Position numbers and translations under genes: made by a program. Shown here piece by piece: positions 3 through 64,000 of a stretch of 64,000 nt of DNA. Positions within the stretch are counted from its first letter, which is position 1, and every line of letters begins with the position of its first letter. Source of the stretch: Candidatus Omnitrophota bacterium (GTDB taxonomy: Bacteria > Omnitrophota > Gorgyraeia > Zapsychrales > Zapsychraceae); the NCBI GenBank assembly GCA_029261055.1, contig JAJDCA010000075.1, positions 77,573 through 141,572 of the forward strand, in the 5' to 3' direction. The notes beneath the pieces were generated by a model, which was not told where the DNA came from, searched no databases, and worked only from the letters and a program-made list of their open reading frames with translations.

Positions 3-3000
3 TGGATAAATCGAGGGTTTGATAAATTTATAAAAAGGCTGGCCTCAAAAATCAGCAAGGACCAGAGGGATATTCAGGAGCAAGTTATCAAAGGTGCTAT
101 TAGTCGGGCAAGAATCGCGTATCTTGACAATTTTCAAAGTATTGTTTCTTTGAGAAAGGTTCAATACAGTCAAAGACTAGCAGATAATCTGCTTGATGTT
201 TTTTCAGAAGAGATAAATTTGATAACAGCACAGCTTAAAAATTACCGAGAGGTAAGCATATCTTCAGAAGATGCCCTTTATGTAGGATTGTTTGATGACC
301 TTCTTCATCTTTCCGGTGAGTTTATCCAAACAGAGGTATGTACGTGGTGTGATAGGGCTCGGCAGGTTAGGGAGGGAATGCAAGAAGGTATTCATTTTGC
401 TGTTATTGCTTTGAAGGATGCCCAAGGGCGGATATTAGGTTTTTCACAGGTCCAGATAATTAAAACACCCCTAAAGGGGAGTAAAGAAGAAGGTTCCCAG
501 GGGTATCGGGTTCTGTCCCTTACAGGGATAAATCTTTCCGAAAAGGCGATTCCGATCGATAGAAAAAGGGCGGTTTTGGTTATTCTTAAGGCAGCTTGGA
601 GTTTAGCTCAGGCTGCAAACTTACAAAAGGCAGTTGTCATTTATGCGAGTAATCTCCATTCAAATCAAGAAGACGTAAAGAGATATATTAGTGAATTTTC
701 AAGTCAGGGATATCTGAAGAAAGGCAATCTGCTTGAGACGGTAAAGTTGAGTCATAGTCCTTCGTACAGCTATCAGGAGGTGTATGTAATCGACAATCTA
801 CCGGAGATAGGGCTCATTACTACAGATAAAGAAGAAATAACAACGGCCCAAGAGAAGGAAGATTATCTTTTAGAGAGAAAACATTTAGGTTTTTATAATA
901 ACCTTGGCCATATTGTGCACAATGGAGAGTTGTCAGAAGAATATGCAGGGATGCTTAAAGAAGAGATAGAAGGAATATTAAAAACCATGCCGCAGGATAT
1001 TATTGAAGATTTAGGGCTTAATTTTGCCGGTGGAGGGATCAGCTTTAATGTCATTCATGAACCCTCTTTGGATCGCAGCACGATAAGCCGGACTCAGGAG
1101 GAGATTACGCTTTATTTGGGGGTGGATGTGCTCTATGGGGAGGGGAAAATTGAGACCTTAACGTTAAGGGAGCTTTTGGGCGAGGTTATTGCCTCTGTTA
1201 TCCTCGAAGATTATCAGCAATTGAAAGAAGCTTCAAAGACCAATGAAAACGCGTATTTTAAGATGGAATTGATAAAGGTGCTTTTAAATTATCGGGCTTA
1301 TTTGGCACTATATCATAAGTTGATTCAACGGAAAAACTGGACACCAGAAAATTATTTGGATGAAAAGATTGCGCAGGAAAGGAAGACATTATTAGCTGGG
1401 TACAGACAGGATTTGGAGAAATTTACAAAAGGCATGCATGGTGTCGCACAGTGGAATGTTTTTCTGAATATCATGGATGACGCGGATCCGGCATTTATGG
1501 TTATAAATTATGTGCATATCCTATTAAAAAATTCCTCATTAGACGAGAAGGGGATTTATACGATAATGATGAAGGTTAAAAATATGGATGTCTTGGGCAA
1601 ACCCAGCATTGCGCGGTTGAGGAATGTATTAAAGGAATTCTTTTTATCCGGGAAGGTAAGATTAAGAATAGGTCAAAAGGTAATAAACAATGAACGGTTT
1701 GATAATTTTGATGATACAGCTGCATTAACACAGGTCAAAGATACCCTGCTGACAACACAGGATGCCAATATTTTTTATCAATTAATACGAGAGGTTTTAT
1801 CTGGTTTACTACCGCTGGATGAAATCGGACTCAATAGTGAGATAAGCGATTTATTCGAGAAGGATATATTTTCATTGCCGGATAGAGAGGGTGTTTTAAG
1901 AAAGGTAATCCAGGATATTTTTACAAGACGCATAGGCGGAAAGGCTTTTATAGCATTAAAAGCACATCTTGCTGCAAATAGAGGGTTTAAAGAGATTCCT
2001 TATATAGAAGTTTTGAGTCAGGAATTAAATGAGGGAGAGGATGCCGATGATTATGAGTTTTTAAGGTACGTTGGGAATGAGGATGGTTTATACAAGTTGA
2101 TTTCAGATGAAGGTGATATAGTTCAGACACGGGATTGGGTGAGCCAGTTGTTTGTGATGAACCAGGAAAATGATGAGTCAACGCAAGCTTCTCCTCTCAA
2201 AGCTAATCAAGTAATACAAAAAGAGTATGAAGGAACAAGTTTTCTCGCCAAAGTCATAGATGCCGTACGTGGGAAAATTAATATTTTAAAACAAGAGGGA
2301 CAAATATGGGACGTAAAACGTAGTGAGGCATTAAAGATTTTAGCGCCATATATTTCTTACCTTGTTAATGCTCCACCAGATTCCATAGAAAAATTTGATG
2401 AAGTACGCCTCACCGCAAGTTTCAAAGGCACCAAAAATTCCTTCCTCGCTGTAAAATCAGAAAATGGCCGCAACATTCTTTACATTCATCTCTACGCCGT
2501 AGATAAGGTTGCTGATTTAGTTTCAAAACAGGCCGATAAAGATAAAGACTTTTTCCTTCAAGCCTTTGCCGGTCAAATCCGTCATGAACTTGACCGCCAT
2601 ATTAAGGAAGGCCTTGCCGATGGTCCCGAAGCCCAAAATCGTGACCTCGCCGACTTTACCAAACCTCAGCATTTAGACGAACTCACCGCCACGGTGTATG
2701 TATTAGATCACCCAGAAACATTTTATCTTCAAACAAATAAAGAATTTGAAACTGAGCTTAGAAATATTTATGCGATGTACAAGAAAAAAGAATCTACAAA
2801 AAGGCTGTTGCCCGAGGGCGATATAACTTCCCGTGGCGGGTTGAATGCCCTTGTAAAACTTACGCAATATGGGTTTAAGGCAGCAGTCTTTTTCGTTGGT
2901 TTTGTTGTTCATTTGGGAATAGTGACGGGTGTATATTTACTGTTTGTAGCTGGGGGGCGTTTGTTGTTAAAGGTTGTTGATGTATCGTTCCCGATTTGGC

Positions 3001-6000
3001 GAAGAATCTATGTTGAGTTGACACGTATCACAGGAGGATTTAATGATAAATCTGATTCTGAAGGAAATGAGAAGCCAGGCTCAAAGAACAAAACGCTTCC
3101 TAGCTTTGATCTCATGGCGGCAACGTTATTCGGGTATTTGGTAGCAAATCATTTAACAATTATGTTATCAGCTGGCGCGATTGCTGCACTTGTTGCGTTG
3201 AGTTTATTTGGAAAAATAGGAAAACGAACTATAGGTGAAGCAATAATCAATTTAACAAAAAGGTCGTTGCACAAGGGCTATATAATCTCCCGTGGCGGGT
3301 TGAATGCCCCTGTTCGGCTTCTTGGTTGGCTTGTCCGGCATACCGGCAAGGCAGCGGCCTTTTTAAAATATTTTAAAAAGAACTCTTTTTATTTTTTCAA
3401 TGGAATGAGTGTTGAGGGTTCCAAGAGTTTTACGTATGAGCAGCTTATTAATAGTAATAATTTTACTTACTTTAACAAGAGAGGCTTTTGGAAGGTTTCC
3501 AGTTTGGATTTCTTGTTTATTGAGAAGATAGGCATCATTTGGAATAGTTTTTGGGATCTTGGAGGTAATCGCCATAGCAATGACATCCTTATGGGAGGCA
3601 TTAAATTTATCGGAAGAGACAATAAGGGCAGGTCGTTGTTTCATGGTGGAGAAATCAGTGAAAGGAAAAGGAATAAGAATGATATCGCCCTGTTTGTGGC
3701 GATTAGAGGTCATCATAAACCGTATCTTCTGGGTTATTCCAAAAATCAAAGGAATTTTGAGCTGTTTTTAGCAGAAGAAGGTCATCTGTTGAAATTTTCA
3801 ATAAACGGGGAAGATCATGAAGGAGTTGTCTTTGTTTTTCAATTCCAAGATGAGAAATATGTTCTTCAAGCATTTTTAATGTCATCCAAAGTTCCTCCTT
3901 TAAGATTTATCGGGACATTTATTAATCAATTTATCCTTAGTGCTTCAAATATAACATATCTTTTAAGTCAGGGCAAGGCAGCGGCTTTTTATTCAATTTT
4001 AGCTAAAAGAGCAATTTTCTTATCGTCTGCTCCAGAAGGAACCCTACGGGTATCAAATCCTTTTTGGTTAAAAATTTTAATTAGTTCATGGGGAATATTT
4101 TCATCAAAAAGAAATTTCATAGAAGGTGTTGGGTTAGTTGACTTTGGCAAAAGGAACCGATTCACCGGTTCTAACGAGTTTGGTAGCAAAATGAAGCGCA
4201 GCCTGGATATGCTTTTTAGTCAGTTTGGGATAGTAGCGAGTGATGATTTCAGTGACCTCGATGCCGGCCTCAAGGAGTTCCAAAACAAGATAAATCATAA
4301 TGCGGGTTCCTTTAAAGCAAGGCCGGCCGTGGCATATGCGGGGGTTGATATCTATGTATTTACGGTAGTTAATCATGTATTTACTCTCCTTATTAAAAAG
4401 GATAGTCGGTCAAAATTAGTGTTTAACGGCAGTTTTGGAAAGTCTTTCTACAATCCATTTTTGTACAAGCCGGTCGTAAAGGATTCCTTCTTTGGTAGCG
4501 AGACGCCGGAGTTTGGCCATTTGACGAGGCTTAAGGGTAATCAGCAGATGGCTTGGTTTTGGGAATTCGAGATGCACTGGCTTCAATTCATCAAGATATT
4601 GAGTGCTGTCATGAGTATCCCAAAAGGCGGCAGCATCCGCGTCATTCTTAAATTTAGGGATTCTTTTGGTCGACATGTATTACCTCCTTTGAAAAAGTTT
4701 TTGTTCGGATCGGGACATGTTTCTAGCCGTAATAATATAGGCCAATCCTTTAGATTCATAGCGAGCCACCATAAACAAGTATCGTCCGGCGTACGATTGT
4801 CCGTAAATAAGATAAAGTCCATCTTTAGATTTCTTAAACAATGGTCGTCGGTAACAGGCTTCTTCCACTTCTTGAGTGTTCACTCCATGTCGCGCAATAT
4901 GGTTAATGTTCCAAGCATCCCATTCAAATTCAGTTATTCGCATCAATTTTCCTCTTTGTTAAAAAGGGTAGCATATGGAAGTAATGGTGTCAAGCTGCCG
5001 CAGGAGGAAAATCGACTAAAAAATAGTAATTCGCAATCAGGATGGTTTTTGAAAGCGGCCTTTTTTAGAGTTTTGAAAACGATAATATGGCCTACGCAAC
5101 AGCGTGTTGTATTTTTAGGGAAAGTAGCCGGTTTAACGTTAGGCCTTCTTCTGACGGTTATTGCGCCTGTTTTTGCTGGTGCTGGTGAGGTTTTTGTTGG
5201 CGGGTCTCCGGTTTGGATTGCGTTGGGAGGAATCATTGGTATAGGGATAGTATTAAACCTTTATAGGCGTGGGGGCAAAAAACAAGCAGAGGAGTTAGGG
5301 AAACAGGCAGGTACGATAAGGGAGGAAGGCAAAAAGACGGTATTACAGGTGATTAGCTCTTTTGCGATTGGTGGGGTGTCGCAGATGACTTCAAGTCTTT
5401 TATCAGATATAGAGAAAAATAGATTTACGGCAATAGTTTTATCCAGACATGTAGAAGGAGAGCGCGATAAAGAAATTGATCATCTTAGAAACAATGGTGT
5501 GAATTTTATTTTTGAGAAAAAGCAAAATTCATTTTTTAATAGTTTAGTCGATAAATCTATTATTCAACGAATAATATTCACGTTTATGTACATAAATAGG
5601 ACTATGTATAAGCCGTTCATTGGGTACTATTTATTTAAAACAATACAACCAGATGTGGTGCATTTTCATTCATCAAAGGGCTTAAGGCATTTTCCTATTA
5701 AATTTATTGCAAAGTTTATAATCAATGGCCCTAGAATTTTAACGACATATCATGATTCTGCATATGGTAGGAAGAAATTAATAAAGAAATATGGGCTGAT
5801 TTTAGGAGGTGTGATAAGCATTGCAAATTATTTTGATATGCGATTTATGAATGATGCGATTGTTGCGGTGACAAAAGCCCAAAATGTTGGTAGCGGCTCT
5901 AAAGTTCAGGTGATTGAAAACGGGGTTAATTTCGACTCGGTTCAAGAAGCCACACAGGATTTCAAACAGACCAGGTTTAAGGAATTAGCGAATACATTAA

Positions 6001-9000
6001 AAAATAATTTTGTCTTAGTAAATATTGGCGGGTTACATTCAGATAAAGGGCAAAAATATTTAATAACAGCTATGCAGACAATTATTAAGAAAATATCTAA
6101 CGTGAAGCTTCTTATTATTGGTGAAGGTCAAGAATATCAATCTTTAGAAAATCAAATAAAAGAGTTGAATCTTCAAGAGAGTATTGTTCTTTATGGAGCA
6201 GTAGATAATCAAGATGTTTCAAAAATTCTTTCTTTTGCAGATATTTTTGTTTTTCCATCAGTGTTTGAAGGGCTTCCTTTAGCCCCGTTAGAAGCCATGG
6301 CTATGGCAAAGCCTGTTGTGGCGAGTCGTGTAGGGGGGATCCCTGAGACTTTAGGTGAAGATGAAAGTGCAGGGTTATTAGTTCCTGCCAAGGATCCGAA
6401 AGCGTTGGCGGAGGCCATTATTCGGTTACATAACGATAAAGAATTATCTAAAAAAATGGGTGAGGCTGGACGAAATATAGTTCTTGAAAAATATACCGCT
6501 AAAACCATGGCCAAAGAATACATGGCCTTGTATGACCGCCTTCTTCTCGAAGCCAAGCCATTTCGTGTTTTGCGTTTGATTATGGATATTTTTCAGCATA
6601 TTTTATCTAGAACTCGAACTTTCTTTTTCCCAAAAAATTTTGATTACCATTTTGTTTTGAATCTAGGTTGGCAGGCCTGGTCTAAATTATTCAGCCTGCC
6701 AAGGTATATTCGTATACCTGTATTTATTTTCATTATTAGTGCTTGGTATATTTTTGGATTTCCTAGTATTGCGTTTGCTGATGGTGTTTTCTTTAGTGAG
6801 ACAATTTTTAGTTTAGACGTATTTGACTGGTTGTCGATTGTTTTGGGTGGGGGAATATTTATTTTTGTTGGGAAGACTTTTGGCATGTTTAATGACGGGG
6901 AGGAGGATAACGTTAAATATATTCCTGGCAAAACACAAGATGACGAGACTAAAAGACATGTCATGAATATTTATGATTCACCACCGAAGGGTGAGGAATA
7001 TCAGCTTTCTGCCAAAGAGGCGTATGACCAGATGGAAGCATTATTTGAAGAATACCAAAGTAGAATTGACAACTGGGAATATATCACCAATGGGGTGTCT
7101 GAAAAAGATTTTGCGCTTATTACGTATGCGGATTCCGTAACAAATAAGAATCAACCTAATGAAAAAGCTCTTAAAAATACATATAAACTTTTTAGAGGGA
7201 TTAAAAAAAGTAATGGGGGAATTAAAAAAACTAATAAGGGGAGATTTCCATTTACGATTTGGCAGCCAATATCCTTATTTCCTTCCAGTACAGATCGTGG
7301 TTATGGTGTGATTGACCATAAGGTTGTGGATCCTCGATGGGGAGACTGGGAGATGGTGGAGAAAATAGTCAAAGAATTCAATCTTAAATTGCAATTAGAC
7401 TATGTCATGAACCATATTTCTGATCAGAGTGAATTATTTACGGAATTTTTAAACGGGAATGAATTGTATAAACATTTCTTTACGTATTACAGGGCGACAT
7501 ATATTCAGGAAGAAATTGATGGGGAAATTGTTTATATGCGTAATGACGGAAGCCGGAGCCGGTTTGTTAATGGCGATGAAGGGGATCGTATTACGATAGA
7601 TATGTATAACGACCCAGAACAAAATATTCTCTTTGATCAATGGGATAACCGCGTGGATCGAAAGGATTTTGATCTCATAACCCGTCCACGAACTTCTGAT
7701 TTATTAACGGAAAAGACGCGGATAACGACAAGAGAAGATGGAACAACAGCAGCTATAAAAGTTATGGTCTGGACCACCTTTAGTCCTCACCAAATAGATT
7801 TAAACTGGCATAACCCTGCTGTTTTGGTTTTTATGACGGATGTATTTTTAAATCTTATAAGCCATGGGACAAAAATTGTCCGTTTAGATGCCGCCCCCTA
7901 TATATGGAAAGAATTGGGGACAAACAGCGCTCATCAAAAGAATGCCCATAAATTGGTAAAACTTTTCCGTTCAATGGCTGAAAAGGTTGCCCCTACTGTC
8001 AAGCTTCTTCCTGAAATTAACGCATCAATTGAAGATGCCAAGAAATATTATGGCGATGAGAGACATCAAGATGAAGGTCATATTTTATATGATTTTGGTT
8101 TCTTTCTCGAAATGGTATCGGCGCTCCAAAAAGGGGACGCCAAAGAACTTAGAAAATATCTTCAAATGCATCCCCATGTAAAGGAATATTATTGGTACGG
8201 TTTGCTTAAAGGGCATGATGGGGGGCCATTGTTAGCGGCTCAGAATATTTTGGATCCAGAACGATACTGGGATGTGATCACTTCATTTAAAGAGCACAGC
8301 GAAGATATGTATGGTAGGGAATTAATTATGTATCGCAAAGTTAAAAATTTAATGGATTCGCTTAAAGAGGATAATAACAGCTTAAGCACACATCTTAAAA
8401 ATATTCTTGGAAAAGAAAAGGTGGATGCCACGATTGATTTTGCTTTAAGCCTTTTAAAAGATAAAAAAGAGCGGCCGTGGGAATTTTATAAGAAGCTTAT
8501 AAGCTCTGAAGAAGTTCCATACGAATTAAATTCGACGGTGTGGAGCCTGTTGTCTTCTTATAGAAAAAAGGGAGAGAATATGTCCACGACAGCAGCTCGA
8601 TATTTTGCTGCATATGATCCAATATTCACCGAAGGCGTTATTCCTGCGATAGAAATTACGGACTTTTTTGGAATGGTGAATATGACTGCAGAGTACAAGG
8701 CGGTGGTTACCCTGGATCAATTTAAAAAAGCAAGTCTTTCCGAAGAGGATTTTAACATACTGAAAGAAATGGAGTGGTTTAAATTAGAAAAAGGAAGTCA
8801 AACAGAAGGATCCTTTAGAAAAGAATTGAAAAATATCAGAAATGATATCGAAAAAATGTTTTCAGATAATATAAAACGTAAATACGTCATCGAGGTTTTA
8901 GAGGCCGCTTTAGAAGAAAGATCATTACGTAGTGTTCACCGTTTTCATATAGAATTATCTGATGCTATAAGAAGAATGAATGATGAATCGCCAAAGGGGC

Positions 9001-12000: not shown

Positions 12001-15000
12001 TATTAGTAAGAGTTATCAATGTGTTGATATTTGGTATCAATTTTGTTGTTGGTTATATTTGGGGCATGTTCCCTCGTATTAGAATATCGCTGAATGTAAT
12101 ATTGGCATCCAGTAAAATTCTCATTAACAAAGGGAATGTCATTTATGGAGGTTTATATGAAGATGTTTCGGAGGGAGGTTCACCCAAAGAATATTTTGAA
12201 GCCGTGGGGCTGGGGAGTTATGTAGGTATTCAGTATTTACGTAATTCTGTATTGGAAGGAGAAGAATTTGGATTTCATGCCTTTACCATAGTCCGTAAAG
12301 TGAGTAGTCGATTTTTTACGTTAACGTGGCCTTTTCTTGCCTTGCTCTTTGCTTCTTCGACCCAAAGTTTTTGGGAAAAAATAATATCTCAAGATTTTTG
12401 GGGAAAAATAGAGCTCACGGATTTAGCGATATCGTATGGCATGTCTATAGGATTCTTTTGGCTGACATTAATACGAAAAAATTTAAAGTATCAATTCTTA
12501 AAAGGGAGATTTAGGAGAATTATTCGAAATAAATGGGTGTGGCTTCATGGATTAAAAAATAGTCGTATTGAGGCTTTGCAGGCATTGAGGGCGGCTCGAG
12601 AGAGAGAAATGTCTGCCCCACAACCTAATGTCGATATGATTATTGTTGTTGTTGGCGACAGTAAGGATAACGAGAAGCAGGTCGCTTTTGAGAATATGTT
12701 TGCCGGTTCTGAAGGTACTATTTGGCGAAATGATGTCCCGGTATTGATCGTAAGAAATAATCCTGGTAAAGGAAGTGGAAATGCACTTTTAAAGATGGCA
12801 GAACTTTTTGAAAATATTCAATCTCCTGCACTACAGGTTATAGATGCCATGCAAGATGATCCTGATATAACAATGGTTAATAAGGGGGTTCAAGTGAACG
12901 CCCTTGATCATTTAACGGGTAAAAATATTGAAGATTTAAGTATTATTGTAGCTACCAATGGACACGATGTGGATCCAAGCAAAAAAGAGTTATTATTCCC
13001 CGGGCTGGAGCAAAAGCTCGCCACACTGGAATATCAACTATCTAATGGTTATCTGGGAGCGCAATATGATAAAGATAATGCGAAAAATGGGCTGATTTTT
13101 CTTGATGGTGAGGGTGTTTATTTAGGGCCTGTAGAGCGAAGAGGAGATATTACATTGCTTTCAGCCATGGTCAGTTTAAAGAAAGTTCGCAAAGGCTTAG
13201 CCTTTTTTCATAGTAATTCTGAGGACGATGAAGAAGGCATTAAAAATATTTATGATAAATTTGCATTTGATTTTGTTCGGGAAAATCATCCACTCCGATT
13301 TGAGTGGCATGAGTTAAAAAAAGAACAAGTTCCAGTTGTTACCGGTGTGAAGCTTGTGAGTTTTAAATTTTTGTCGCTGCTCAATGATTTGCAGGCCCAC
13401 TTAACACAGGTTGAAAATGGTGAGAAGGATTATGAAGACATTTTAGCCACTATTAAAGATGCGGATGTAAGGAAAAAACTCACGAAATACAGAAAAAAGA
13501 TTGCCGGCATAAGGAATTTACCGATACGGATTTCCGACATTATAACGCCTGTCTTGCGCATAAGTACCGGGGCAGATAAGAAGCTTATCAAGTACCTTGA
13601 GGTTTATTACGCCGGAATGAAGAAAAGTTTACGGAATTTAAAATATAAGAAAAGCCCAACGGAAAATGAAGATATCGTTACTTTTTATGCTGAATTGTTT
13701 AAGTTTTATCGGGAATGGTTTAAAGGTAGAAGGAGTCAACCTTTTAGCTTTTATTCTCCACAGGTTACGCATGACGAGGCATTTTATTTTAAGAGGTTCA
13801 AAGATGAATCTAAATACAAAGATGATTTAGATGAATTTAACTCCATAGTGGAGGAAGCTGAAAATAATAAAAAATCAAGGGGAGCAGTGAAAAAGGCCGC
13901 CGGTTTCTTATTAGCCGCTATTGGAATTGCATGGGCTATACTACCGGCCAAAACTTTCGGCGATGATCTTTTAAGTCCTATCGGTCAGGCGTTGGCAGAG
14001 ACCTCTTCCTTTTGGCAATGGGTGACGATGGCGATAGGTGTTGGCGTATTTGGTTTTTTCTTGAAAGAATCTAGTATTCTGGTCAGCCAAGAAAATAAAT
14101 TTTGGGAAGAAATGAACCGTCGGGATCATGACGAGACAGTTCGTGAAAGAAAGATTAAGTGGCGGTTTCATAACAGAGGGGATGAAATTCTCGACACCGT
14201 TAAAATGGTACATGAAACAACCATTCAGCGGGCTGTTCGGAGTCCCGGCTACATTGAAACATTGTCGATGACTTTATTCTGGAGCCGTCTGCTCGTAGGG
14301 TTCAATAAATTTCGGAATGACCGGGTCACCGGACGGGTCAGGGCGATTGATTATCTCGTCAAGAAAATACAGGAGAACTGGTATCATTTGCCTTTTGCCG
14401 GGGTTATGGCCGCATTAGCCGGGCCGATTGCGCATGCTAATGATATGTTTTCAGGGCAAATTGTTTCCGGGAAAAAGGTGGGGCAAGCACTTCTTGATGT
14501 GTCCATAGGAGATTTAAACGATGAGAAGGGTATTTTTTCCACTGCGATAACGGATAAAGCCGGCACGATGCACTTGCCGCCAAACGAGAAGGCGTATGTT
14601 CTATTGGCCTCTAAACAATTTCGTATTAAGAATCCGGACGGAACATTCCAACAGCCTTCGATTTTAAAAACGCCCAAAGAAAATTTGGAATTTATGCTGA
14701 AACAATTACAGTCAGAATCACCGGTGGGAGTTATTACGATGAAAGATGTCATTATTGCTATCCCGAGGGATGAACGTAATGACGAGCTTGCTTTAACCAT
14801 TGAGCGTCAGGGGGCTACCGTGTTGCGTTCAGACAAGTATTTAAATTCTGTGTCTGTGCAGGTTGTCCTGCGTGCGAAAGCAGTGCCTGAAGAGCAACGA
14901 ATCACGGCAGCCATGGGCGTATTTACGCTGGATGAGAATGGGTTGGCTGGAATTTTGGCGCAGGGTCAGGACGGAGTTCTTTCGGCAAGAGTTGTTCCGG

Positions 15001-48000: not shown

Positions 48001-51000
48001 TAGTTCTTATTACAGATTCTTCATCTGCAGCTTGGGTTGAAAAAAGACTTTCTGGGTATTTTGGCTTGCGGGCGGCGTTAAGGAGCGTTTCTCATGAATT
48101 TGATACAATCATCGCAGGGAAGTTGATTTTTACGACGGAAGAATTTAAGGATCATATTGAAAATTTATCACAAAATATAATCCATTTTAGTGACAAAGAC
48201 AATTTTAAAGTTATAGTTAGTTCTCTACTATCTGCCCAACCTCATTTTTTCGCAAAAAAATCCCACAAAGATGCGATAGAAAATAGTTTGAAGAAATTAG
48301 CCGGAAATTTAGGGTTAATGTCGGCAATGAATATCTATGTACAAGAAGAATTAATAGAAAGTCGGAAAGTTTTTGATCAGAGCAACGCGTTGGATACTGA
48401 ATTAATTTTTTCTAATTTAAAACAGGCCCGTTTAGGTCAAAAAATTATTCATTCTCTAATTGCCTTGCTTCAATTTAGTGTGTTTCAGGAAACACGAGGA
48501 GCAGGTTGGCCTATATTTATGGCCGAGCAAGAAAATACAAAAGAAGCATGGCGGGCGTATCTTAATGCATTGGTAAGCAGACAAAATGTGTTTAAGAAGG
48601 AGGATGTTAATAAAATATTTGAGGGGTACGAAGCGTTTTTAAGTGCTTATAGGCCTCAAGGTATTAATAAAGATACGCTCATTAAGATTATGGAGGATTT
48701 ACGTCTTTTAGCTTTACAGAAAATGGAGGCTATTGAAAGTATGGCCGTTTTTGTTTATTTGCAGGGTCCTATTAAAAAGCATTTCAGGTCTAGTTTAGGG
48801 CTCGAGATAGGGCCAGTCACTATCAAACTCAAAGTTTTTGGATTTACCTTGGAGGAAGTTCTACATACATTAGAAATAAAGAATTATTTTGCAACTATTA
48901 AAAATGGGCAAATAGATGAAAATTTAACAATTTACATAAACAATGAAGAAGTGTCATTTCAGAATTGGAAGCACCAAAAAGTGCCATCCGGTGCGCAGAT
49001 AAAGATTGTTTCACATGCGCAAAATTATCATGAGGAAAGGAAGAAATCACAGAAATCTTTTAAGATTCTTGGGTTGATTTTGATGGCGGCTGCAGGGGTA
49101 ACAGCATTGTTTGCCGTATTCCCTCTGACGGGATGGACGAGCAGTATTCTTCCCGGGCTTGTGCAGGGTGCCGAAGGTAACATGGTTTGGTTCGGATTTG
49201 ACAAGGGTTTAGCGGGGATCGTTTTTGGGGCGGGATTGTTTGCGATAATGGGTTTCACTAGTGGCGCGTGGAATTTGCGTTCAAGTCAGGTGAACCCGGG
49301 TAAAAATAAGTTATTAGGTCCCGAGGCTTTTGGTCCCATTCAGCGGACGCGGTTGAGTTCTAAAAACGGAGAGCATTTTAGGAATGTTGTCGGCCGTGCG
49401 GTTATGGATAGTTCCGGTGCACTGCGTCCTGTGAAGGAAACTAAGGATGATTATCAGATAGCCTCGCGGCTTTCGGCAGTGACGGGAAGATTAGCTTTGG
49501 AAGTCTGTCAAGAGTGTGACTGGAGCGGGGTTATTGTTCAAGTTGTTCGCGATAGTGACCGGCTGGCGCGTTTTACGGAGAATAATGTAGGGGTAATGAC
49601 CATAGATGAGGATATCCTTACGATGATAGAAAAGGGACGCCCGGGGGCGTTAGAAACATTTGAACTCGGATACAAACACGAGCTTTATCACACGCATGTT
49701 TACAAAAATCGATTGGAGTTTAATCGTGTTTCGTGGATAGGTCAAGAAGAGCGTCTTGTGGAAGAGCTTTTTGTGACCGTGTTATACCTCAAAGATTTTC
49801 TTGCCTACAGCTCTGATACAAGAGAAGGCATTCTTAATCTTTTATCCGCGACAGATAATCCTTACGATCCTTTTCAATTCGGTAGGAATATCCTTCAGCC
49901 GATGCATGAAGGCGTCATTGAAAAGGGTCATTTACATAATGGTCAAGCTTTTCAGGAGACTTTAGTCGAGGTTTTACCGAAAGTTATCGCCTATATTACG
50001 GATACCGATTTTTATAATTATCCGGGTATTGATAGTGCTCGAAAAATTTTACGGGAAATACATCCTGATAATTTTAGAAAATATATACATGGATTAGATT
50101 TAAATTTACCTCCGGGCTTCATCGGGCGTTTTATTTATGCCGTAAAACGTATTCACGGGGTAGGCCGGTTTATTTTGGAAGACGGGGAAATGTATGAAGT
50201 TATGGTGGCGCCCTATTCTATAAATTATTCGAGAAATAGAGAAAATGAAAAGCGTAAAGAAAACGGCATGGTTAGTGTTTTTGTAGAGAATATAAGCGTT
50301 GGGCGTTCAAGTCCGAATGGTTTTAATGCGGATGATGGTACAGGTGTGGATCCTGTATTTGCTGGAAGTATGGATATGGCGACTATTGGACTTAATCTAT
50401 GGTTGGCACGTTTATTATTAGTTAAGGATTATATAAAATTGACTGCAAGTTCGGTAGAAATTATTACCCATCTTAGGGCGCCTAAATTGGACAGGCATGC
50501 TTTTTATTTGGTTGAGGATGGTTATCATGGGCATACATCAAACGCAAAATTAGATTTTGAGGCAAGGGCCAAAAACTTTAGGAAGCTTGGCTTAGCGCAA
50601 GTTATTCTTGAGGTGCTTTTGTCATATATCGCTCCAGGGGGTACAGTCACGCTGAGCATTATACATCCTGTTATTTTACGACAAATAAAAGAAGAAGATA
50701 TTCCTTGGGAAGACACAAAATTTGGAAAATTGTTTGCCAGCGTTGGTCTACTTAGAAGCGAAACGGGCGCATATATTGATCTAAATAAATTAGAACTTAT
50801 CAAACATACTAAAATCAGCACCCCACCGCGTGTCAATATCCAGTGGATTAATAAGGGCAATGTTTTTGGTTCGTATGCACCTACATTTAAACCACCCATT
50901 TTTTCATCCTTTCGTATCCACCTTACGCAGACCTGGAAATGGCTGAAGAATCGCCATCTCCCACCAGCCAATTTATTTTATTATTTAAGTCTGGTAATCT

Positions 51001-54000
51001 TAGCCCCGTGGGCCGCACGGTTAGGAAAGAAGACGTATGCCACAATTACAGCGTGGATTGGTTTGGGTGGGCTTACTATCGAAATTCCAGCATTGGTTTA
51101 CGCGGCATTGTTTTTCGGGCCGCTGGGAATGTTGGCTGTCATCGCAGCTCTGGCTGTGGGCGAAATCCTTTTAGAGCTTCTTGCGCTATGGCTGCTACCC
51201 GCGCGGGCACGAGGGGATATTGCCCGGCATACTTTCAAATCTATTGTACGTACCTTCAGCCGGAAGATGCGTGTCCTCTTGCCCTACGTAGGTCTGGCTA
51301 TCCTGTGGTTTGTCATTCCCTCAATCAGTTTTACCTTAGCCATTTTTATTCCCAGCTTTCTTATTCCCATTCTTTTTACCGTCTTCTTTCATGGCATTTA
51401 TGATATGAATTATTTCCAAAAGGTCTTGGAGATAGGAATTGATTGGGATAGAAAAAAGTATTCTTCTGTCGGCGGCGGGCGAAGGTTTGATGATGTCGAG
51501 AAACTTTTTAGTAGGGCTACGCAGCATGACCCCGACGCCCTGGGCCAGTTGGTTGCGTATCAGAAGAATTTTCCTGAGTTATTCTGGAGGCAGGTTGATT
51601 ATTTTTGGTATGACCGGAGCAACATCAATCATCTTCTTAAATTAGGTCAGGCCTCTGTTGATAGTTCTTTGAAGTCTAGAGAAATTCCTATTCCTAAGGT
51701 GATCAAGGATATTCCTCATTTAGATTTTTCCAGGGCAACCCCAGAGGATTTATTAAATCAAAAAGAGTATGAAGAGGTAAGAGAATTAAATTCAAGTCCA
51801 CAGGCAATAGTCTCAGCGATAAGGAATGTTTACAGACCACAGGATATAAACTTTAGTCTTTCTGAAACATTAGTACGCCGAGTTGATATCCATCAAGATG
51901 ATTTGATTCAAAAGGATTTTGAAGCAACCATTAAGAAGAAGCTCGGTAAAGATCAGGAAATTAATATTTATCAAATCGGTCTTGGAACCGAATATTTTGA
52001 AACTTCAAGTATTTTCACCGTATTAGAAAACGCATTTGACGCAAACAAGGTGTCTCCCAAAGATCAAAAAAAATGGACCATTAATTTTATTGGGATTGAT
52101 TTTGATTCAGAAGTTATTGAGAATTTTTGGCCAAGAGTTGTCGTGGAAAGCCCCTTTAACACCAATCTTAAGATTGGTCAGGGGGATACCCTTTATGAAG
52201 AGGCCATGCAAGAATTAAGCAAGTGGTATAAAGCTGATTATATTTTTCACCGGCATGTTTCTTATGCGAATCATTTGATCAGCCAGGGTAGTCTTTATTA
52301 TCCGGAAAATTATGAAGAAGTAGTAGATGAAAATGAGTTAAGCGCAATGATTAATGTTTATGCATCGACACGAAATATATTAAAACATTTAGCTAAGCCA
52401 GGGACACATTATATTATTGAACCCGCTCAAAACGGACCATTCCCTTTTGTGTTTTATATCCCGGGAACCGAAATTATTACAGTGAATAAACTCGAAGGAA
52501 ACAGAAAATATGATGATGAGCATGATATTAACAATATTGGGACAGGCATTCATGAGGTACTTGATCCTGAGAAGGTGGCCGAGGAGGGTATTAAATATTT
52601 ACTACAGTACAATGCGCATAAGAATAATTTTCAGGGCAACTTAGCGTACGTGTTGGGAAAAGAAGGTCTGGACCCATCTTCGTGGTTTTATTATTTCACC
52701 CGGTTTATTTTGGCAGTATTGATAAAGTTTAATGTGATGAAATCTGCCAAAGTAAAGTTGGGTAAAAAAATCAGCACGTGGGTCGGCCTCGGCGGGCTTG
52801 TGGTCGAGATTCCGGCGCTTATTTACGCGGCGCTAACCTTTGGCCCTCTGGGAATGCTGGCAGTCATCGCTACCCTGTCTGCAGGCGAAATATTCCTGGA
52901 ACTTCTCACCCTTTGGCTGTTACCCTCCCGGGCACGAGGAGATGTTGCGCGTTATGATGGATATTTCATTCTGCAGCTGTTTGGCAGAAAGATGATGGTT
53001 CTTTCACCTTACGTATTCCTCTCTTTATTGTGGATTCTTGCAACGCCCACCGGAGTTACGCTCTTCTTGCCCGTCCCCATCTTTATTCATGCAACATATG
53101 ATTATTATCAATTGCGAGATAGTTCCTCCGTAGGGACAGGTCGTAGCCTATCTTTACATCTGAAAAATATTCTCAAGATAGCAGGAGAGTATGTGACGAG
53201 GATTGTATCAAAAGTCCGAGCGCTCGGACTTTTGGTCAATGAAACTTTGGCCAAAGGGGCAGTCCTATCAGCCGGTTTGTGGTTAGTAGCCCCAGGGACT
53301 GTGCTGGCAGGCGGCATTACCGGTGGGGGGCTTGGAATTATTGAGCTGATTTCAGGGCAACTTCTGGAGATTTTAGTGAGTATAGTAGGGACGTTTACAA
53401 TAATATTTATTGTAAATACACTTTATAAAAAACGTGTTCGTGCAATCAGTAAAGATATGAAGGCGGAGATTTACGCGTCTTATAGTGTAAAGGCTGATGG
53501 GGATGAAGGGGCATCCGGAAATAATAATTACGATGAAAATCCAGGGTTTCAAAAAGCGGTTAAATCTATTTTTGGCCGCGCTGTTTCTACCAATTTTCTA
53601 AAAAAATACGAACATAAACTAAATGTTCTTGATTTATTAACAGGCCGAGGAGTTGTCCCATTTTTTGCTGTCAAGGCAGGAGCTAAGTCTATTGTAGGTG
53701 TAGATCATTCAAACCAGAATCTTGAATTGGCAAAGGCATATTTGGTAAAGGTTACTCACTTGGCAAAGGTACGTCTTATTGAAGATGACGTGAAGCATTT
53801 TTTGAGTGAATTTGAAAAGGATAGGCCCAGCATGGGGGCATTTCATATTGTCACCATGGTCAATGCTGTACATAGATTTGATGCAGAGTCTTTAAAATTT
53901 ATTTTTTCACAATCATTAAAAGTGCTGGAAGCGGGAGGACGATTGGTTTTATTGACACACGTTAAGCATTTAAGCCTCGATAGGGCAGGTTCATGGAAAT

Positions 54001-57000
54001 CATCGGATATCAAAGCCTATCAGAAGTTTTTAAAGAAAAGTGGTTTTATTCACGTTAACGCTTATCCAGCTGGGGAAATAAAGGGTAAAGTAAGAGTTTT
54101 TAATAAAAGTCATGAAGAAGAATTAAGAGATGCGCGTTGGACTATTGTTGTTATTGCAGCCGAAAAACCTGAGAATGATGCCTCCAAATCTTCGCGAGGC
54201 GCCCCCAGGAAGCTTCCCCAGATTTTCTACAAATTTTTCTTAAAACATTTTGTGAATGTAATAGTTCCTTTCCTCCTTTTTGTTCTCATCTATATGATCA
54301 GCGGGATAGAGTCTGTTTGGGCGGAAGGGGTGGTTGATAACATGGGCCTTATGCATTTAGGGCAAGCCGAAGTTAGCTCGCTGGGCTTTTTAAATCCGTT
54401 GGGAGATTTAGTATGGTTAGTGCCCATGGTGTTTATGGGAGGGATTAATGTTCAAAATAATCCGGAGGAGAATTCAACGAATGTGCGTAACGTCGTCCTT
54501 GATGAAGAGTTTATACAGGAAGCGGAACATGTGAAAAATCATTTATTAAAAGTTATAGGGGATGCCTTTAATATTGAAGATAACAAGGATTCCCCTCAAG
54601 CCCTTGCGCAAATTGCTGAAGCCTTTGCGCAGGCAGGTTTTATGACCCAAGCTTTCGACTTGGCCATGGAGGTTATCAAAGAAACAGAAACTATTATTCC
54701 ATCTCCGAAACAATTTAACGCCCGTGTTAAAGCCGCCGCTGTCCTTTGGAATATTGGTTATCATAATGAAGCTAAACAAGCCCTTAAAATTATAAATAGC
54801 GAAAACGGATCACATATAGGCAAAATTAATAATCTTTCAATATCATTGGCTCCTGAATTTATTCTACAGCAGCGGGGGCTGGTTGCACATGAGGAGAGTC
54901 AAAAAATTCGTAAGAATATTAAAGAAAATGTTTTTTATGGGTATAAGGAAAATCCTGACAGGAAAATTTCTGATCTTACGGTGTTAGCCTCTGCATTAAT
55001 TTCGGGAGAGTATCCTGAGGAAGGAAATTCGGTCCTTGATGATGCGAAAATAATCGTACAGGAAGGGATTAAAAAAAGTGCGGTTTGGGAATGGATTGAG
55101 GCCATCTCTGATTTGGCTGTTGTGTTTGCGCGTGCCGGTCGCGTACCTGAGGCCTATGAGATCATCGTAGGGGCACAGGGTACACCACTGCGTCAAGACA
55201 CAAGCGACACGCATAGGCATTCTGAGGCCCTAATTTCACTTGCCTGGGCTTTAATTCAGACTGGGCATAGAGAAGAGGGGCATACATTGATGGATAAGAT
55301 ACGTGTGAATATTGACACCGATAATTCTAAACTTAATATGCGGATTTTGGCGCGTATCGAATTGGCCATAGTGTTTGCCTTGGAGGGTAAAATTTTAGAG
55401 GCGAATGAGTTATTAGATCAGGTACGGCATGAAACCAGGACAATTTTAGATGAGAAGGATGCATTACGATCCTTGATTGTTAGTAAAACGATGTCAGCGC
55501 AGTCCGTGATTTTTCATGAGGCGTTGATGGCAGTAGCACCTTCTGTACGTACGCAAGTGATGAGTGTTTGGCCTTCTATCCAGGGCAAAGTTTCAATTAC
55601 GTTAGCGATAATTGGTGTAAAAGGACTTCTGAGTGAGGCTCCGGTGATGGAAGAGGTGAGTCCTGACGTATGGAAAAGGGTATGGAATAATTTGGAATAT
55701 ATTGACGTTTATCCATCACAAGGGGTACTGCCCACAGAGACAAACAGGATTTTGTTTTATATTATAAAATTGCTTAAGCGACCCGTTAGAGAAAAAGGCG
55801 ATTGGGCATTCTTAGAGACTCCGCCGTTATGGTTTAACACTATGCTTAAAACCCAATCTTCTCAAGGTCTGCCGTCATGGTTGACAAAGATTTGGCCGCG
55901 TTTTTCTTTCAAAGACAGACTTAGTTTTGGTTTGCTTATCATCACAGCAAAGATTCAGCATCTTCCTATAGAATGGCTGCGAGAGATGCCGCGGGATCAG
56001 CGTAAATACGTCTATTTTCAAGGAATGTTGAGCTTTTGGTGGGGCCAGGAATTCGGCCCATATCAAAAGGTGATGAAATCTCTTTTGAATCAGATTCCTC
56101 CTTCATCAAACTATGAAGAGCGTGTTCAATTTATTCATGCTTCCGTCATGTTGATGCGTTTGCTGGTGAGGGTCATGCCGACATTTAGGAGGCTGAGACG
56201 AACTGATTTTCTCGATGATTTGGTTAGCTCTTTATCCAAACCATCTGCAGTCCCTCTACTGGAGAGGATTCGACAAGTAGAGCAGGACATTAATAAATAT
56301 CTATTTAATAAAGTAGAAGATCTTTTGCATATTACTCTGGATAAAAATTATCCTTTGGATATTCTTCCCGACATCGATCTTTGGAGGGCTGTTTTTAATT
56401 ATGATTTGCAAAATGAGCCCCGTTTGCGTGATTTGTTCGGGCAATACGTATTGACATGGCAGCGCACCAGTGATTCAAAGCAGGCGAGCGTGGCGGCCTG
56501 GGAGTGGTTACAGTCTTCGTTAGAAAAGGAGACTGGAGAAAAAGTGAGTTTTGCTCATGATAGCGCGCCTGCACCTATGTCTTTTATGGGTAGTCCTAAA
56601 GTAAACCGAGCGCAAGCAGCTCAGGATGCTGTCGCCCAGCAGTATAAGGAGGCGCATTCTTTAGTGCAGCAATTGATTCAGAAATTACCGGGAGCAACCG
56701 TTACAGACGCTTTGAGTCAATTGTTAACACAATGGGGTGAACCCGGTACCCCATCTGAGGAAATAGTGAATCAACTAAGAAATTTATTAGGTCAGATTAA
56801 GATAACAAAAGATTTAGAAGTATACATAAAAACAATACGTAAGCATCTTCAGAAAGTCAAATCAATTGCCGGTGAAATTAATTATTTTGATGGGTCTCAG
56901 AATGTTCTCATTGGGGTTAGCATGGATCCGGTAGAGCGTTTGCATCTCGGATATCCTTCCCTTGGAGGCTCATGCCTGGATTGTATGACAGGAGGCGCAA

Positions 57001-60000
57001 AGCATTTTGCAGCAGGTTATGTGCTTCATCCCAAGATAGCAGTTCTCTATGCCTGGCGTGAACAGCCCGATGGGTCAAAAGGTGAACGGTTGGCCCGTGT
57101 GGTTGTCATGCAGACACCCCAAGGATTGATTCTTTTAAGTAATCTCAAGACGAGCACGGATTTGGAGTTGGGCAAGGCCTTCTCTGAATTCCTCTGGCGG
57201 TGGTCGCGGAAGGCAAATATTCCTTTGATGAGATTGGAAGGTGAATCTTTTCCATGGTTGACACTCCCGGCGGATACAGCTTCAGAAAAGATGGTCGTAG
57301 AGTTTCCTGCGGGAGGCCTTAGAGGAGAGTTTTATTCCGATGTCCTATTATGGGTAACCACATTTCCAATGGAAAGGATCTTAAACGTTCAACGTTATGT
57401 TCCTGAAACAATCGAGACGCATATGTTTTGGGCGGGGCATATTCAACCGGCCAATGGAAGTGAAGTGATCGTCACAGATGATAAGTCCATAGCTCTCACG
57501 TTTGCTTTGGCGCTGGACAAAAAAGAATTAGATGAATCCAAGTTGATTGATCAAATAGGGCTTAAAGGATTTGTGCATTTTAGGTATTCCGCAATTGTTG
57601 ACGGACATCCGCATGAGTATGACTGGTCAACGCCGGAACAGGATCTACCTTTGAATTGGGCGTCATTAAAAGTCATTGGACGTGATAAAGATAATAATTA
57701 TCTGATATCGGCAAAGTTTCATCCACCGAAGGAAATGATTTCTATCCGGTTCATCATCAGACTGCATACGAGGACGGGGCAAGAAATTTGGTTGAGCAAT
57801 TATACCGAAGACAACAATTGGGTGTGGACGGTAAATCGGGGAACGGTGATGAATGTAATAGTTCCTTTCCTTCTTTTTGCGTTCATCTATATGATCACCG
57901 GGGTAGCGTCTGTTTGGGCGGAAGGGGTGGTTGATAGGATGGAGCTTGGGATAAATGATGGAAAATGGGAATGGTTGGTGCGTATGGTTGCCGGCGTAGG
58001 AATTGTGGGAGGGCTAATAAGTCCGTTAGCTAAGAGAGATGCTGGGGTAAATCCATTTAAGAAAAGGCATGAAGAAATAAAACGAGAAAGAAAAGAGAAA
58101 GAAGCTATTCAAAATAAGGACACTCGTCCTGTTGACCAAGTAAAGGTTGTTGTGCCGCTCGTCGAACAGAATAATAATTTTATAAAAATTAAATCGGAAA
58201 AAAGTGCGCAGGCAGCTAAGTTAACATGGAATGGCCTCGAGAAAATTAGTGCCTTTTTTCAGATTATATTGCAACTAAAAAGGTTAATAATTAATTTTAC
58301 TTCTTTTGACATCAACAAGATACGCGAAATGGTATTTGGACCTTTTATTCTCATTGTTTTTATCATTGGTTTGATAGACCTGTTTACGCATGTTGAAACT
58401 GGCGTGGTGAATCATTGGCCAGTGGATTTGATGATTCCCTTGATGATGTTTAATAAAGTTCGTTTAGGGGATTTGGATAGGTTATTAAAGCGATTTAAAT
58501 GGAATGGTGTTTTCATAAAGGATCTTCCAATACACACAATTAGTCCAAGTTTTTATGAACATCAAATCGATAAGGACACTAAGATTACTTTGATAGAATT
58601 TATTCTGGAGGAAGGTAAGCAGAATAGAAAAAAATGGTATGTAAATAATCATCTGATTGGAGCCGCAAAGCTGACTGAAATAGAATTGAAAAAATATCTT
58701 CTGGATGACATATTCGATGTGTATTCGATTTTACTGCAAAAGAATGAGATTATTTCGAGCAAACAAATTTTAAAATTGTTAAGAAATAAATTAAAAGTGA
58801 TTAGTACTATTCGACAACTTGAACGATCGCTCCAGTGGCTAGAATTAAAATGGTTTCCGGTTCGACGCATGCCGATAAGGAAAAGGTATGAGGTAGGGCG
58901 TATTATTGATTTGGGCTGGGAGGTAAGCGGGGTTGTGAGTACAATGCCTAATATCATCAGTTCACATAATTGGGGTAAAAAATTACATAAACAATGGAAT
59001 GTCGATGGGAAAATTAACGGGATATTAATTTCTAAGCGAATTAATGTAATTAAAGAAATATATAAATTACAAAAAACTAGGGATATCATTGACGGAAATA
59101 AACGTAAAACAGTTGATGCCTTAAATAAAATTTTAAATAATTGGGAAAAATTAGATGAAGGGTCTCCACGCATTTCAAGATTAGATCTATTTGGGTATGA
59201 ACCAATATTACTCTATTTGGGTAAGAGTCGTACTGAATCTGAATTGAGGGTTTTTCCTGATTTAATGCAATTGCAACCAAAAGAACGTGAAAAGAAATTG
59301 CAGTTTGTATCAGGAGTAACAGATGATGAAATTGAAAGGTTGATTGGAGGTAAGAAAAAAAGAATTCTGTTTGCTCAAACAAGGAATAATAATTTTCAGA
59401 AGTTATCTCCAGAATATTGGATAAGATTAGCCTATAGTTTAGGATTTCGGGATTCTTTTATCCTTCTTGCAGGAGATGAACAAGATAATATTTTGCCTAT
59501 TATTGATATTCCTTACCGCATTAGGTTGTTACGATTATCGAAGGGGTTGAAGCGGGAGGATCTTGCAAAGAAATTAGGTGTGTCGAGAGAAATGATATCT
59601 AAATGGGAAAATGTAAATAAACCTTTGAAAATTTTACAAAAGTATCGTGCAGATCTTGCTGCTATTTTGGGAGTTAAGGAAGAAGATTTATTTGCTCAAA
59701 AGAAAAAGTCAGAAATGGAAGTTCATGGGGAAAGGGGGCCTGTTTGGTTTACAAAGAAAATCCCTGTAGCTCTCCAAGGAGCGCTGGCTGAATATGTTAA
59801 AGATATCCCTATCGGAGAGGCTCATGAGGTGAAGGTTAATACTGTGGGAAGCACCTTGGGGGACGTGATCCATAATTTACGTGAAGCATATCCAAAACTG
59901 GGGCGGAATCTTTTAAGCGAAAGGGGACAGTTGGATGTGCGGATCCATATCGAGGTTGATGGAAAAAGAGTGGACGGTCATTCTGACTGGGCGGCCATCC

Positions 60001-61652: not shown

Positions 61653-61794
61653 GAAAAAATAGACGCTATATTTAACCCGTTATTTCTAAACGAGTAATAA
61701 AACAAATATATTCTATGAAAAAAAAGACTATGTCGATAATTTTTGATAATTATTTTGTGTTGTTTGTAATATTGACACAAAGTGGCGTACTTAT

Positions 61795-61811
61795 GTCAGT
61801 GCAACTGACAA
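61795..61811. terminator. Short hairpin TGTCAG-tgcaa-CTGACA between convergent giant gene and mutL (possible bidirectional terminator)
   Basis: 6-bp perfect stem with a 5-nt loop in the 175-nt convergent intergenic region. There is no clear U-tract. Confidence 0.25.
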
Positions 61812-61827
61812 TGTAAAGGTGGTCGTA

Positions 61828-63681: not shown

Positions 63682-63690
63682 AATTTATTA

Positions 63691-63960
63691 AAGAAGCAGA
63701 GAAGTAAGAAACAAGATGCAGAGATTTAAAATGAGGGCCAGAGGTGTAAGAAGTAAAGAATAAAGAAAGAGGAATTAAAAAAATAGAGACAATTTTTAGT
63801 AAAACAGTATTAAACTTTTTCTTTTTTTTACGTCTCTACTTCTCACATTTTTGTTTCTTACATCTCTGCTTCTTACATCTTTGCTTCCTGCTTCTCTACT
63901 ACAGGCATCTTTACTTCTTGCTTCTAACCTCTCTGCTTCTTGATTCTTTGCGCCTTTGCT
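63691..63960. repeat. Imperfect inverted repeat (63691-63715 AAGAAGCAGAGAAGTAAGAAACAAG versus reverse complement of 63850-63874) followed by CT-rich tandem motifs (cttcttacatct / ctgcttct) upstream of mutL
   Basis: 23 of 25 positions match between the arms, with a spacer of about 135 nt. The motif AGAAGCAGAGA recurs at least three times in reverse complement across 63850-63960. Confidence 0.5.
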
Positions 63961-64000
63961 TCTATTTAACTGTTTCTTTCAGCTTCCCCAACACATTCAA

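Follow-up and report, generated by a model that had tools for sequence, protein, structure and literature searches.

A stop-free frame of more than 61 kb from an Omnitrophota bacterium that probably encodes a membrane-studded multi-enzyme protein with almost no cysteine

The 64,000-nt stretch of contig JAJDCA010000075.1 analysed here (assembly GCA_029261055.1, Candidatus Omnitrophota bacterium; hereafter the window) is occupied almost entirely by one open reading frame (ORF) on the plus strand. This ORF lies at 3–61652, comprises 20,549 codons and a TAG stop, lacks its 5′ end, which the window edge cuts off, and is delineated by a stop scan, by codon periodicity and by a contig of the Logan assembly. 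On balance, we favour the explanation that it is a real single gene from an uncultured member of the Omnitrophota, that it belongs to the class of giant multi-enzyme proteins studded with transmembrane (TM) segments, and that its product is a scaffold facing the cytoplasm. The two parts of this explanation differ in strength. That we are dealing with a genuine single giant gene of the Omnitrophota multi-enzyme class is highly probable. The proposed topology and mechanism are more tentative, and we rate them slightly below an even call.

Frame +3 contains no stop codon between nt 3 and the TAG at 61650–61652, which amounts to 61,647 nt of sense sequence, as an earlier sequence-only reading of this DNA had stated. 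The same reading had taken the listed start at nt 150 for merely the first TTG, and this is indeed where an ORF lister that needs a start codon begins; residues are numbered from the codon at nt 3 (residue 1). Outside frame +3, open runs reach at most 1,854 nt, and this longest one corresponds to a mutL gene on the minus strand. With the base composition of the window, a random codon is a stop at p=0.071, and 20,549 stop-free codons would have a probability of about 1e-655, in agreement with the previous claim that a frame of this length does not arise by chance. In all 3-kb bins, GC content at first codon positions (0.42–0.54) exceeds that at third positions (0.32–0.40), which in turn exceeds that at second positions (0.29–0.36), and the +1 and +2 frames contain 49–117 stops per 3 kb. 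Because this order holds in each bin and the other frames are rich in stops, the frame is coding-like from end to end. The ORF is thus neither a chance nor a low-complexity artefact. Its codon usage correlates with that of mutL and mutS at r=0.71, compared to 0.17 for an out-of-frame control. An alternative genetic code is unneeded, as the frame is open under table 11. Two compositional differences were observed. Third positions of the giant gene (3–61649) are AT-richer, with a GC3 of 0.365 versus 0.459 in mutL and mutS (61828–63681 together with L001 3–2648), and tryptophan makes up 1.49% of the giant versus 0.6% of MutL and MutS.

Only the beginning of the chain has homologs in other genomes at length. 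This conserved N-module (3–2216, aa 1–738, plus strand) was found at 13 loci, in one GTDB genome and twelve metagenome contigs (33–47% identity, the closest being L003 at 47%), and in four database proteins. Most of these alignments start at query residue 1 and the rest by residue 59 at the latest. The ORFs of the relatives extend upstream for 864–2,450 codons to a stop, or, where the fetched locus ended first, for 3,333 codons or more, in line with the earlier proposal of a gene that extends beyond the 5′ side of the window. Moreover, about 500 residues directly upstream of the module are conserved in all relatives, which places the window edge within a conserved cassette. The real protein would therefore comprise at least about 21,400 residues and probably more.

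Since the source is a metagenome assembly and the protein contains diverged internal paralogs, the ORF might alternatively be an assembly artefact, or a chimera that fuses several genes in frame. A worry about misassembly mediated by repeats had been raised before, and we found no support for it. Seven short imperfect direct repeats were detected in all, the longest measuring 144 nt at 85% identity, and the repeat search of the window returned no inverted repeats. Inside the ORF, Tandem Repeats Finder reported just two 2-copy 21-mers. The internal paralogs are old, at ~25–48% protein identity, and thus could not mislead an assembler. A second assembler arrived at the same sequence where the two were compared: contig SRR15505515_378 (56,255 nt), from the Logan assembly of run SRR15505515, carries the same mutS–mutL pair, is identical to window positions 51828–64000 over 12,173 nt, and has a predicted gene of 17,098 residues that extends as far as the contig does. 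The exact MutL sequence occurs, moreover, on a 151,379-nt contig at NCBI, indicating that the source contig reaches well past the window. A chance in-frame join across 61.6 kb without one stop is not credible, codon-position composition is uniform along the frame, and giant ORFs are the norm in Omnitrophota, closed long-read genomes included. Taken together, we regard an artefact as extremely improbable.

Omnitrophota are tiny, host-dependent bacteria. The flanking mutL of the giant points to this phylum. Its stop codon is followed by a 175-nt spacer and then by a convergent mutL (617 aa, 61828–63681, minus strand). Behind mutL, the 3′ end of mutS lies at 63962–64000 (minus strand), the remainder being located beyond the window and present on the Logan contig. 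Within the best 120 matches of MutL, all named relatives (55–63% identity) are Ca. Omnitrophota or Omnitrophica, the one exception bearing the label ‘hydrothermal vent metagenome’. For the N-module, too, the best homolog with a name (P0002) comes from Ca. Omnitrophota. Judging from the flanking MutL and the relatives of the N-module, the giant gene appears to be encoded in an Omnitrophota genome.

For domain annotation, overlapping 1000-aa tiles were compared with Pfam, selected segments with NCBIfam and the full chain with PDB sequences, and motifs were inspected. Recognisable domains total ~2,400 residues or ~12% of the protein and represent ~12 distinct Pfam families, each in one or two copies and none dominating. 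Near the beginning of the chain, a GT4 glycosyltransferase (5367–6527, aa 1789–2175; E=6e-42) with an intact EX7E motif is followed by a first GH13 domain (7272–8303, aa 2424–2767) with conserved regions I–IV and the catalytic D/E/D triad. The closest families of the latter are sucrose phosphorylase (TIGR03852, 3.9e-33, under the family cut-off), amylosucrase and glucosylglycerol phosphorylase. Its likeness to sucrose phosphorylase is consistent with GH13_18, but no proof of it. TPR matches at ~aa 5217 and ~aa 6539 and a FBPase_glpX-like region (aa 6026–6244) precede an HD-GYP-type HD domain (21981–22388, aa 7327–7462; HD_5, E=1.5e-21), which is degenerate: YDIGR replaces HDxGK, YHSKEYFGGSEYS stands in place of HHExxDGxGYP, and there is no GYP. 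Given YD for HD and the missing GYP, this domain is probably no phosphodiesterase. It is followed by a GGDEF diguanylate-cyclase domain (22557–23102, aa 7519–7700) with the motif GGEEI, and by a helicase of the Upf1/IGHMBP2/DNA2-type superfamily SF1B (26313–27551, aa 8771–9183; TIGR00376, 1.2e-50) with motifs I, II, III, V and VI intact.

Further along the chain, we detected a weak, partly degenerate second GH13-like domain (28815–29600, aa 9605–9866), a dual-specificity-phosphatase-like (DSPc) stretch (30717–31064, aa 10239–10354) that stays under the Pfam cut-off and carries VN where the catalytic HC would be expected, and a paralog of the helicase that has lost Walker A and B (40425–41564, aa 13475–13854). 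A class I methyltransferase dependent on S-adenosylmethionine (SAM), with motif I intact (42405–42779, aa 14135–14259), has a paralog in which motif I is degenerate (53625–53939, aa 17875–17979). Between the two lies a Pol-beta-type nucleotidyltransferase (47904–48131, aa 15968–16043) in which GS...DxD is present. The C-terminal part of the chain holds an XRE-type HTH (59514–59702, aa 19838–19900), a SAMP1/MoaD/ThiS-like beta-grasp (59835–60053, aa 19945–20017) that scores under the family cut-offs, and a domain of unassigned family (60810–61607, aa 20270–20535) with the motifs DLFPG.Y…W…D and GDV.FL.FV. The beta-grasp, a ubiquitin fold, ends in ...FAGIAGG, which leaves its diglycine embedded mid-chain, ahead of a TM hairpin and a 445-aa tail; this diglycine may be a processing or conjugation site. 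The PDB sequence search gave zero matches for aa 12,601–20,549. Judged by their motifs, the GT4, GH13, GGDEF, SF1B helicase, methyltransferase and nucleotidyltransferase units are apparently active, and the HD-GYP domain, the helicase paralog, the phosphatase-like stretch and the second methyltransferase are predicted pseudo-enzymes. Thus, the GT4, GH13, GGDEF, SF1B helicase, HTH and two methyltransferases named by the sequence-only reading were reproduced, and its HD-GYP proved degenerate. A non-ribosomal peptide synthetase or polyketide synthase was also considered and ruled out, as the domain scans returned no supporting domains.

A Kyte-Doolittle scan of the chain yielded 57 strict and 63 relaxed TM segments, mostly in closely spaced pairs, and thus fewer than the roughly 75 helices counted previously. 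At 11 clean hairpins, lysine and arginine make up 18.4% of the 20-residue outer flanks versus 5.0% of the loops (Fisher p=3e-7). Because of this bias, the positive-inside rule would place the long stretches between hairpins in the cytoplasm and turn the short loops outward. A cytoplasmic location fits the cofactors of the active-looking domains (GTP, ATP, SAM, NDP-sugar, NTP) as well as the presence of the HTH and the helicase. We therefore propose a model in which the chain, from around aa 1,465 on, would be stitched to the inner membrane by ~25–30 TM hairpins, with short hairpin loops pointing outward and the long enzyme-bearing stretches lying in the cytoplasm, near cofactors and DNA. Such a membrane-tethered scaffold would co-localise modules that handle sugars, signal through cyclic di-GMP and act on nucleic acids. 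The N-terminal head upstream of the window, together with aa 1 to ~960 (HEAT repeats, the conserved cassette and a GNAT fold, described below), would probably be exported; we suggest this because the same cassette follows a signal-peptide-like N-terminus in relatives. After the head, the chain would cross the membrane only a few times (TM segments at 962, 1051 and 1446) before the cytoplasmic body begins at ~aa 1465. An exported head with a cytoplasmic body would match the ‘SP+TM’ class of Nielsen & Lui, an assignment that is consistent but unproven.

Giant proteins of Omnitrophota have been described in two recent surveys. West-Roberts et al. 2023 (bioRxiv 10.1101/2023.11.21.568195) reported 46 genes of more than 90 kb, encoding up to 85,804 aa. 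The type protein of their Archaeovorins, from Velamenicoccus archaeovorus LiM, has 39,678 aa; the Archaeovorin type contains glycosyltransferase, glycoside hydrolase, methyltransferase, GGDEF, FBPase-like, TPR and HEAT domains and many TM helices, as well as, in most cases, a SecA_DEAD domain and pilZ genes located downstream (10.1101/2023.11.21.568195). Nielsen & Lui 2026 (bioRxiv 10.64898/2026.06.07.730766) catalogued 916 proteins of at least 10,000 aa, or 5,761 with NCBI metagenome-assembled genomes, with a maximum of 147,155 aa. They define a class of ‘multi-enzyme metabolic clusters’, report that 94% carry TM helices or signal peptides, and find that ~80% of the Omnitrophota proteins of at least 10,000 aa are singletons at 30% identity (10.64898/2026.06.07.730766).

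The size of the ORF, its Omnitrophota neighbours and its TM segments bear out the previous assignment to the Omnitrophota giant-gene class. Comparing the protein with Archaeovorins reveals a shared host phylum, a length above 20,000 aa, many TM helices, HEAT repeats (in relatives, as part of the homologous cassette upstream), and glycosyltransferase, glycoside hydrolase, methyltransferase, GGDEF, FBPase-like and TPR domains amid mostly unannotatable sequence. However, no tile of aa 1–20549 matched SecA at E<=0.01, HEAT, NUDIX and peptidase domains were not found in the 20,549 residues (HEAT may lie upstream), and the gene is followed by the convergent mutL instead of a PilZ gene. The giant also has an IGHMBP2-type SF1B helicase, a Pol-beta nucleotidyltransferase, an HTH and an embedded beta-grasp, and its near-zero cysteine content is not reported for Archaeovorins. 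With the multi-enzyme metabolic clusters it shares the many Pfam families without one dominant in copies, the contents of ‘module 1’ (methyltransferase and HD-regulator) and ‘module 2’ (GT1 and sugar metabolism), a density of about one TM helix per 330–360 residues, repeats that are old and diverged rather than recent tandem DNA, and the status of a sequence singleton. At 20,549 or more residues it is mid-range in a catalogue that reaches 147,155 aa. Based on host, size, TM density, domains, old repeats and singleton status, the giant fits this broader multi-enzyme class. We file it there, and call it only ‘Archaeovorin-like’, because SecA, NUDIX, peptidase and HEAT were not found in the window and mutL, not pilZ, lies downstream.

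Other known giants are more distant. Omnitrophota giants built as dockerin or tandem-repeat scaffolds share the phylum, the order of size and the membrane association, but dockerin, TSP3, lectin, NHL and WD arrays and a dominant repeat were not found here. RTX adhesins of type I secretion systems (LapA, SiiE, MpIBP) consist of tandem Ig-like or RTX repeats without TM helices or cytoplasmic-type enzymes. Like the giant adhesin-like ORFs of Chlorobium chlorochromatii (cited in PMC10066038), these adhesins are very large, cysteine-poor and linked to lifestyles of cell–cell association, and the protein described here shares the size and the low cysteine with them. Nevertheless, it differs from RTX adhesins in having no GGxGxD motif, no repeat arrays and 57 or more TM segments, and an RTX-adhesin reading is ruled out on these grounds. 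The giant does not represent a new architecture class, as TM-rich multi-enzyme giants of Omnitrophota have already been described, nor is it among the largest. The sequence-only reading had placed it among the largest bacterial genes, a claim overtaken by the published Omnitrophota proteins of 85,804 and 147,155 aa. Its other claim, of a domain combination not described before, holds only in the trivial sense that ~80% of such proteins are singletons; the mix of GT1/GT4, methyltransferase, HD, GGDEF, FBPase and TPR domains with TM helices is precisely that of the published Archaeovorin and multi-enzyme class.

The non-annotated remainder of the chain consists of old, diverged internal duplications and lineage-specific sequence. 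The largest duplication (13959–20702, plus strand; aa 4653–5685 and 5890–6900) has ~30% identity between its copies, the second of which holds the FBPase_glpX-like region and a TPR. Self-comparison further revealed that aa 7801–9000 are paralogous to aa 13026–13854, and that aa 14107–14299 pair with 17844–18033 and aa 16981–17160 with 17551–17714. Ahead of the pseudo-helicase lies a paralog of the aa 7801–8252 module, with a GCC pair at the homologous position. The aa 4653–5685 block had zero homologs among 5.8 billion proteins. For the last 749 aa, an exhaustive HMMER search against 1.84 billion representatives returned no match below 1e-30, the matches being only to the HTH and to ~25 copies of the C-terminal domain (aa 20270–20535). 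This domain occurs elsewhere as stand-alone proteins of 255–320 aa and in proteins of 2,900–5,232 aa. No colinear ortholog of the giant was found; its relatives share aa 1–738 only and are unrelated downstream. Nor did searches of protein databases return the giant itself.

In the relatives that were scanned (L003, L006, L007 and L009), HEAT repeats precede the N-module, and L003 carries PCMT, LMW-phosphatase and MBL/beta-CASP domains farther upstream. Six of the seven relatives with an upstream stop (L004, L006, L007, L009, L010 and L012) have signal-peptide-like N-termini, judged by eye from a basic residue, a hydrophobic run and an AxA-like end. L006 and L009 are stand-alone proteins of ~2,000 aa that lack further TM segments, and their HEAT and GNAT cassette is predicted to be secreted. 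The GNAT fold itself (279–791, aa 93–263, plus strand) is invisible to Pfam and was missed by a PDB sequence search. A 740-residue AlphaFold2 model of the N-module reached a pLDDT of only 49 overall, but its confident core matched GNAT acetyltransferases in Foldseek; the GNAT call is made on a cropped model only. The modelled topology, beta1-alpha1-alpha2-beta2-beta3-beta4-alpha3-beta5-alpha4-beta6-beta7, is GNAT-like; in this five-sequence model the acyl-CoA motif Q/R-x-x-G-x-G/A was not evident by eye in beta4-alpha3. The family-invariant residues D98, D99, H102, C113, D117, R118, Q121, H131, K138 and D139, among others, cluster in or just before this domain, with Cys113 lying in the motif VCTWxDRxRQ. 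We conclude that aa 93–263 form a hidden, putative GNAT fold.

Two labels among the relatives stand out. P0005, an N-module fragment with 60% identity, is listed as ‘Nanoarchaeota archaeon’ in nr, and the GTDB relative L002 (CAZAPN010000002.1) as ‘uncultured Planctomycetales bacterium’. These are probably binning or labelling issues, although they may alternatively reflect a host-associated origin. In L002 (11986–13392), the long ORF ends at one in-frame stop, past which its frame is open again for another 1,401 nt; readthrough, a split gene or an error in sequencing may account for this.

The amino acid composition of the giant is marked by a near-absence of cysteine. Only 10 of the 20,549 residues are cysteines (0.05%), and all of them occur in five CxxC or CC pairs (C113/C116, C8250/C8251, C13453/C13454, C16502/C16505 and C18991/C18994). 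At an expected cysteine content of 0.8%, the probability of 10 or fewer would be ~1e-56. MutL and MutS contain 1.0% cysteine, and the giant shows no depletion of Trp, His, Met or Tyr. Out of frame, both TGT and TGC are frequent (243–563 each), so that the bias acts at the protein level. C113 sits in the family-conserved VCTW motif, and the two GCC pairs occur at equivalent sites in modules that are paralogs of each other. The two CxxC sites at aa 16502 and aa 18991 were also considered as diverged copies of the N-module, and both hmmsearch and hhalign were negative. The depletion extends to the two closest giant relatives, L003 with 6 cysteines in 6,158 aa (0.10%) and L005 with 2 in 4,663 aa (0.04%), one of which is the motif cysteine; other N-module relatives contain 0.17–0.74%. 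A text search of four relevant papers did not find the word ‘cysteine’ in their main text. We speculate that selection has purged the giant of cysteine, which would amount to a so far unreported rule by which some megadalton bacterial proteins are built; we consider this reading rather doubtful. A possible reason is that the chain, in whole or in large part, passes through the envelope in unfolded form or acts outside the cell or in a host, even though its enzymes are of cytoplasmic type. It is also possible that a chain needing tens of minutes to translate and fold is intolerant of stray thiol chemistry.

Several observations weigh against the picture of a real, cytoplasm-facing scaffold. Low cysteine is a common trait of proteins exported in unfolded form or active outside the cell, and a content of 0.05%, against 1.0% in MutL and MutS, fits an exported or extracellular life and not a cytoplasmic scaffold. 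The TM calls are based on Kyte-Doolittle hydropathy and some clusters contain one or three helices, so that the inside/outside parity cannot be traced along the whole chain. The 5′ end, and with it the true N-terminus, lies outside the window, and the gene is described here from its sequence. Finally, Logan used an independent assembler but perhaps the same reads as the source assembly, and the base-by-base comparison is limited to 12 kb.

The protein could instead be mostly extracellular, forming a surface ‘coat’ or a machine for attacking prey or host, as has been proposed for the V. archaeovorus giant and other Archaeovorins. Besides the extreme cysteine depletion, common to the two closest giant relatives, this reading draws on the signal-peptide-like starts of N-module relatives, including the predicted secretion of the cassette in L006 and L009, on the HEAT repeats that precede the module in relatives and are reported to be extracellular in Archaeovorins, and on published interpretations, which favour an extracellular role. 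However, the positive-inside bias at the hairpins places the long segments inside, and the active-looking domains need GTP, ATP, SAM, NDP-sugar, NTP or DNA, all of them unavailable outside the cell. Furthermore, adhesin-type domains (dockerin, TSP3, lectin, Ig, RTX) were not found in the domain scans, and no downstream PilZ or secretion gene was found in the window, the neighbour being mutL. We thus consider a mostly extracellular protein unlikely. A polyprotein, cut from one chain into working pieces, for instance after the beta-grasp diglycine at aa 20017, is compatible with either topology. The SAMP1/MoaD/ThiS-like domain does end in AGG within the chain, the N-module and the C-terminal domain are found elsewhere as proteins in their own right, and C39 and S8 peptidase domains, possible cleavers, have been reported near the N-termini of other giants. 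Yet scanning of the 20,549 residues detected neither a peptidase domain nor a recurring cleavage motif, and the beta-grasp stays under its family cut-offs, which makes processing of this kind improbable.

The protein described here adds one well-documented member to the giant class, not a new category. The existence of such an ORF will not surprise specialists, and its rarity and architectural novelty had been overstated. What we consider worth carrying forward are the charge bias of the hairpins, the HEAT–GNAT cassette, the pseudo-enzyme content and, above all, the near-missing cysteine. The charge bias bears on the debate of ‘extracellular weapon versus membrane-tethered metabolon’. The portable cassette of HEAT repeats, a conserved ~500-aa block and the GNAT fold, which occurs in secreted proteins of ~2,000 aa as well as in giants, offers a tractable fragment for expression. 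The cysteine purge is easily checked across the published catalogues and may separate functional or topological subclasses. If true, the purge, the embedded ubiquitin-like diglycine and the secreted GNAT cassettes could together mean that enzymes of cytoplasmic type are delivered to a host cell.

Both strands of the window were devoid of tRNA and tmRNA genes and of Rfam families at the gathering score, and no terminator was found past the stop of the giant gene (61400–62000). A P-loop, GTGGSGKT, without a family match lies directly past a TM cluster at 33612–33635 (aa 11204–11211). The 280-nt spacer between mutS and mutL (63682–63961, minus strand) contains four copies of a 15-nt unit at 63828–63887.

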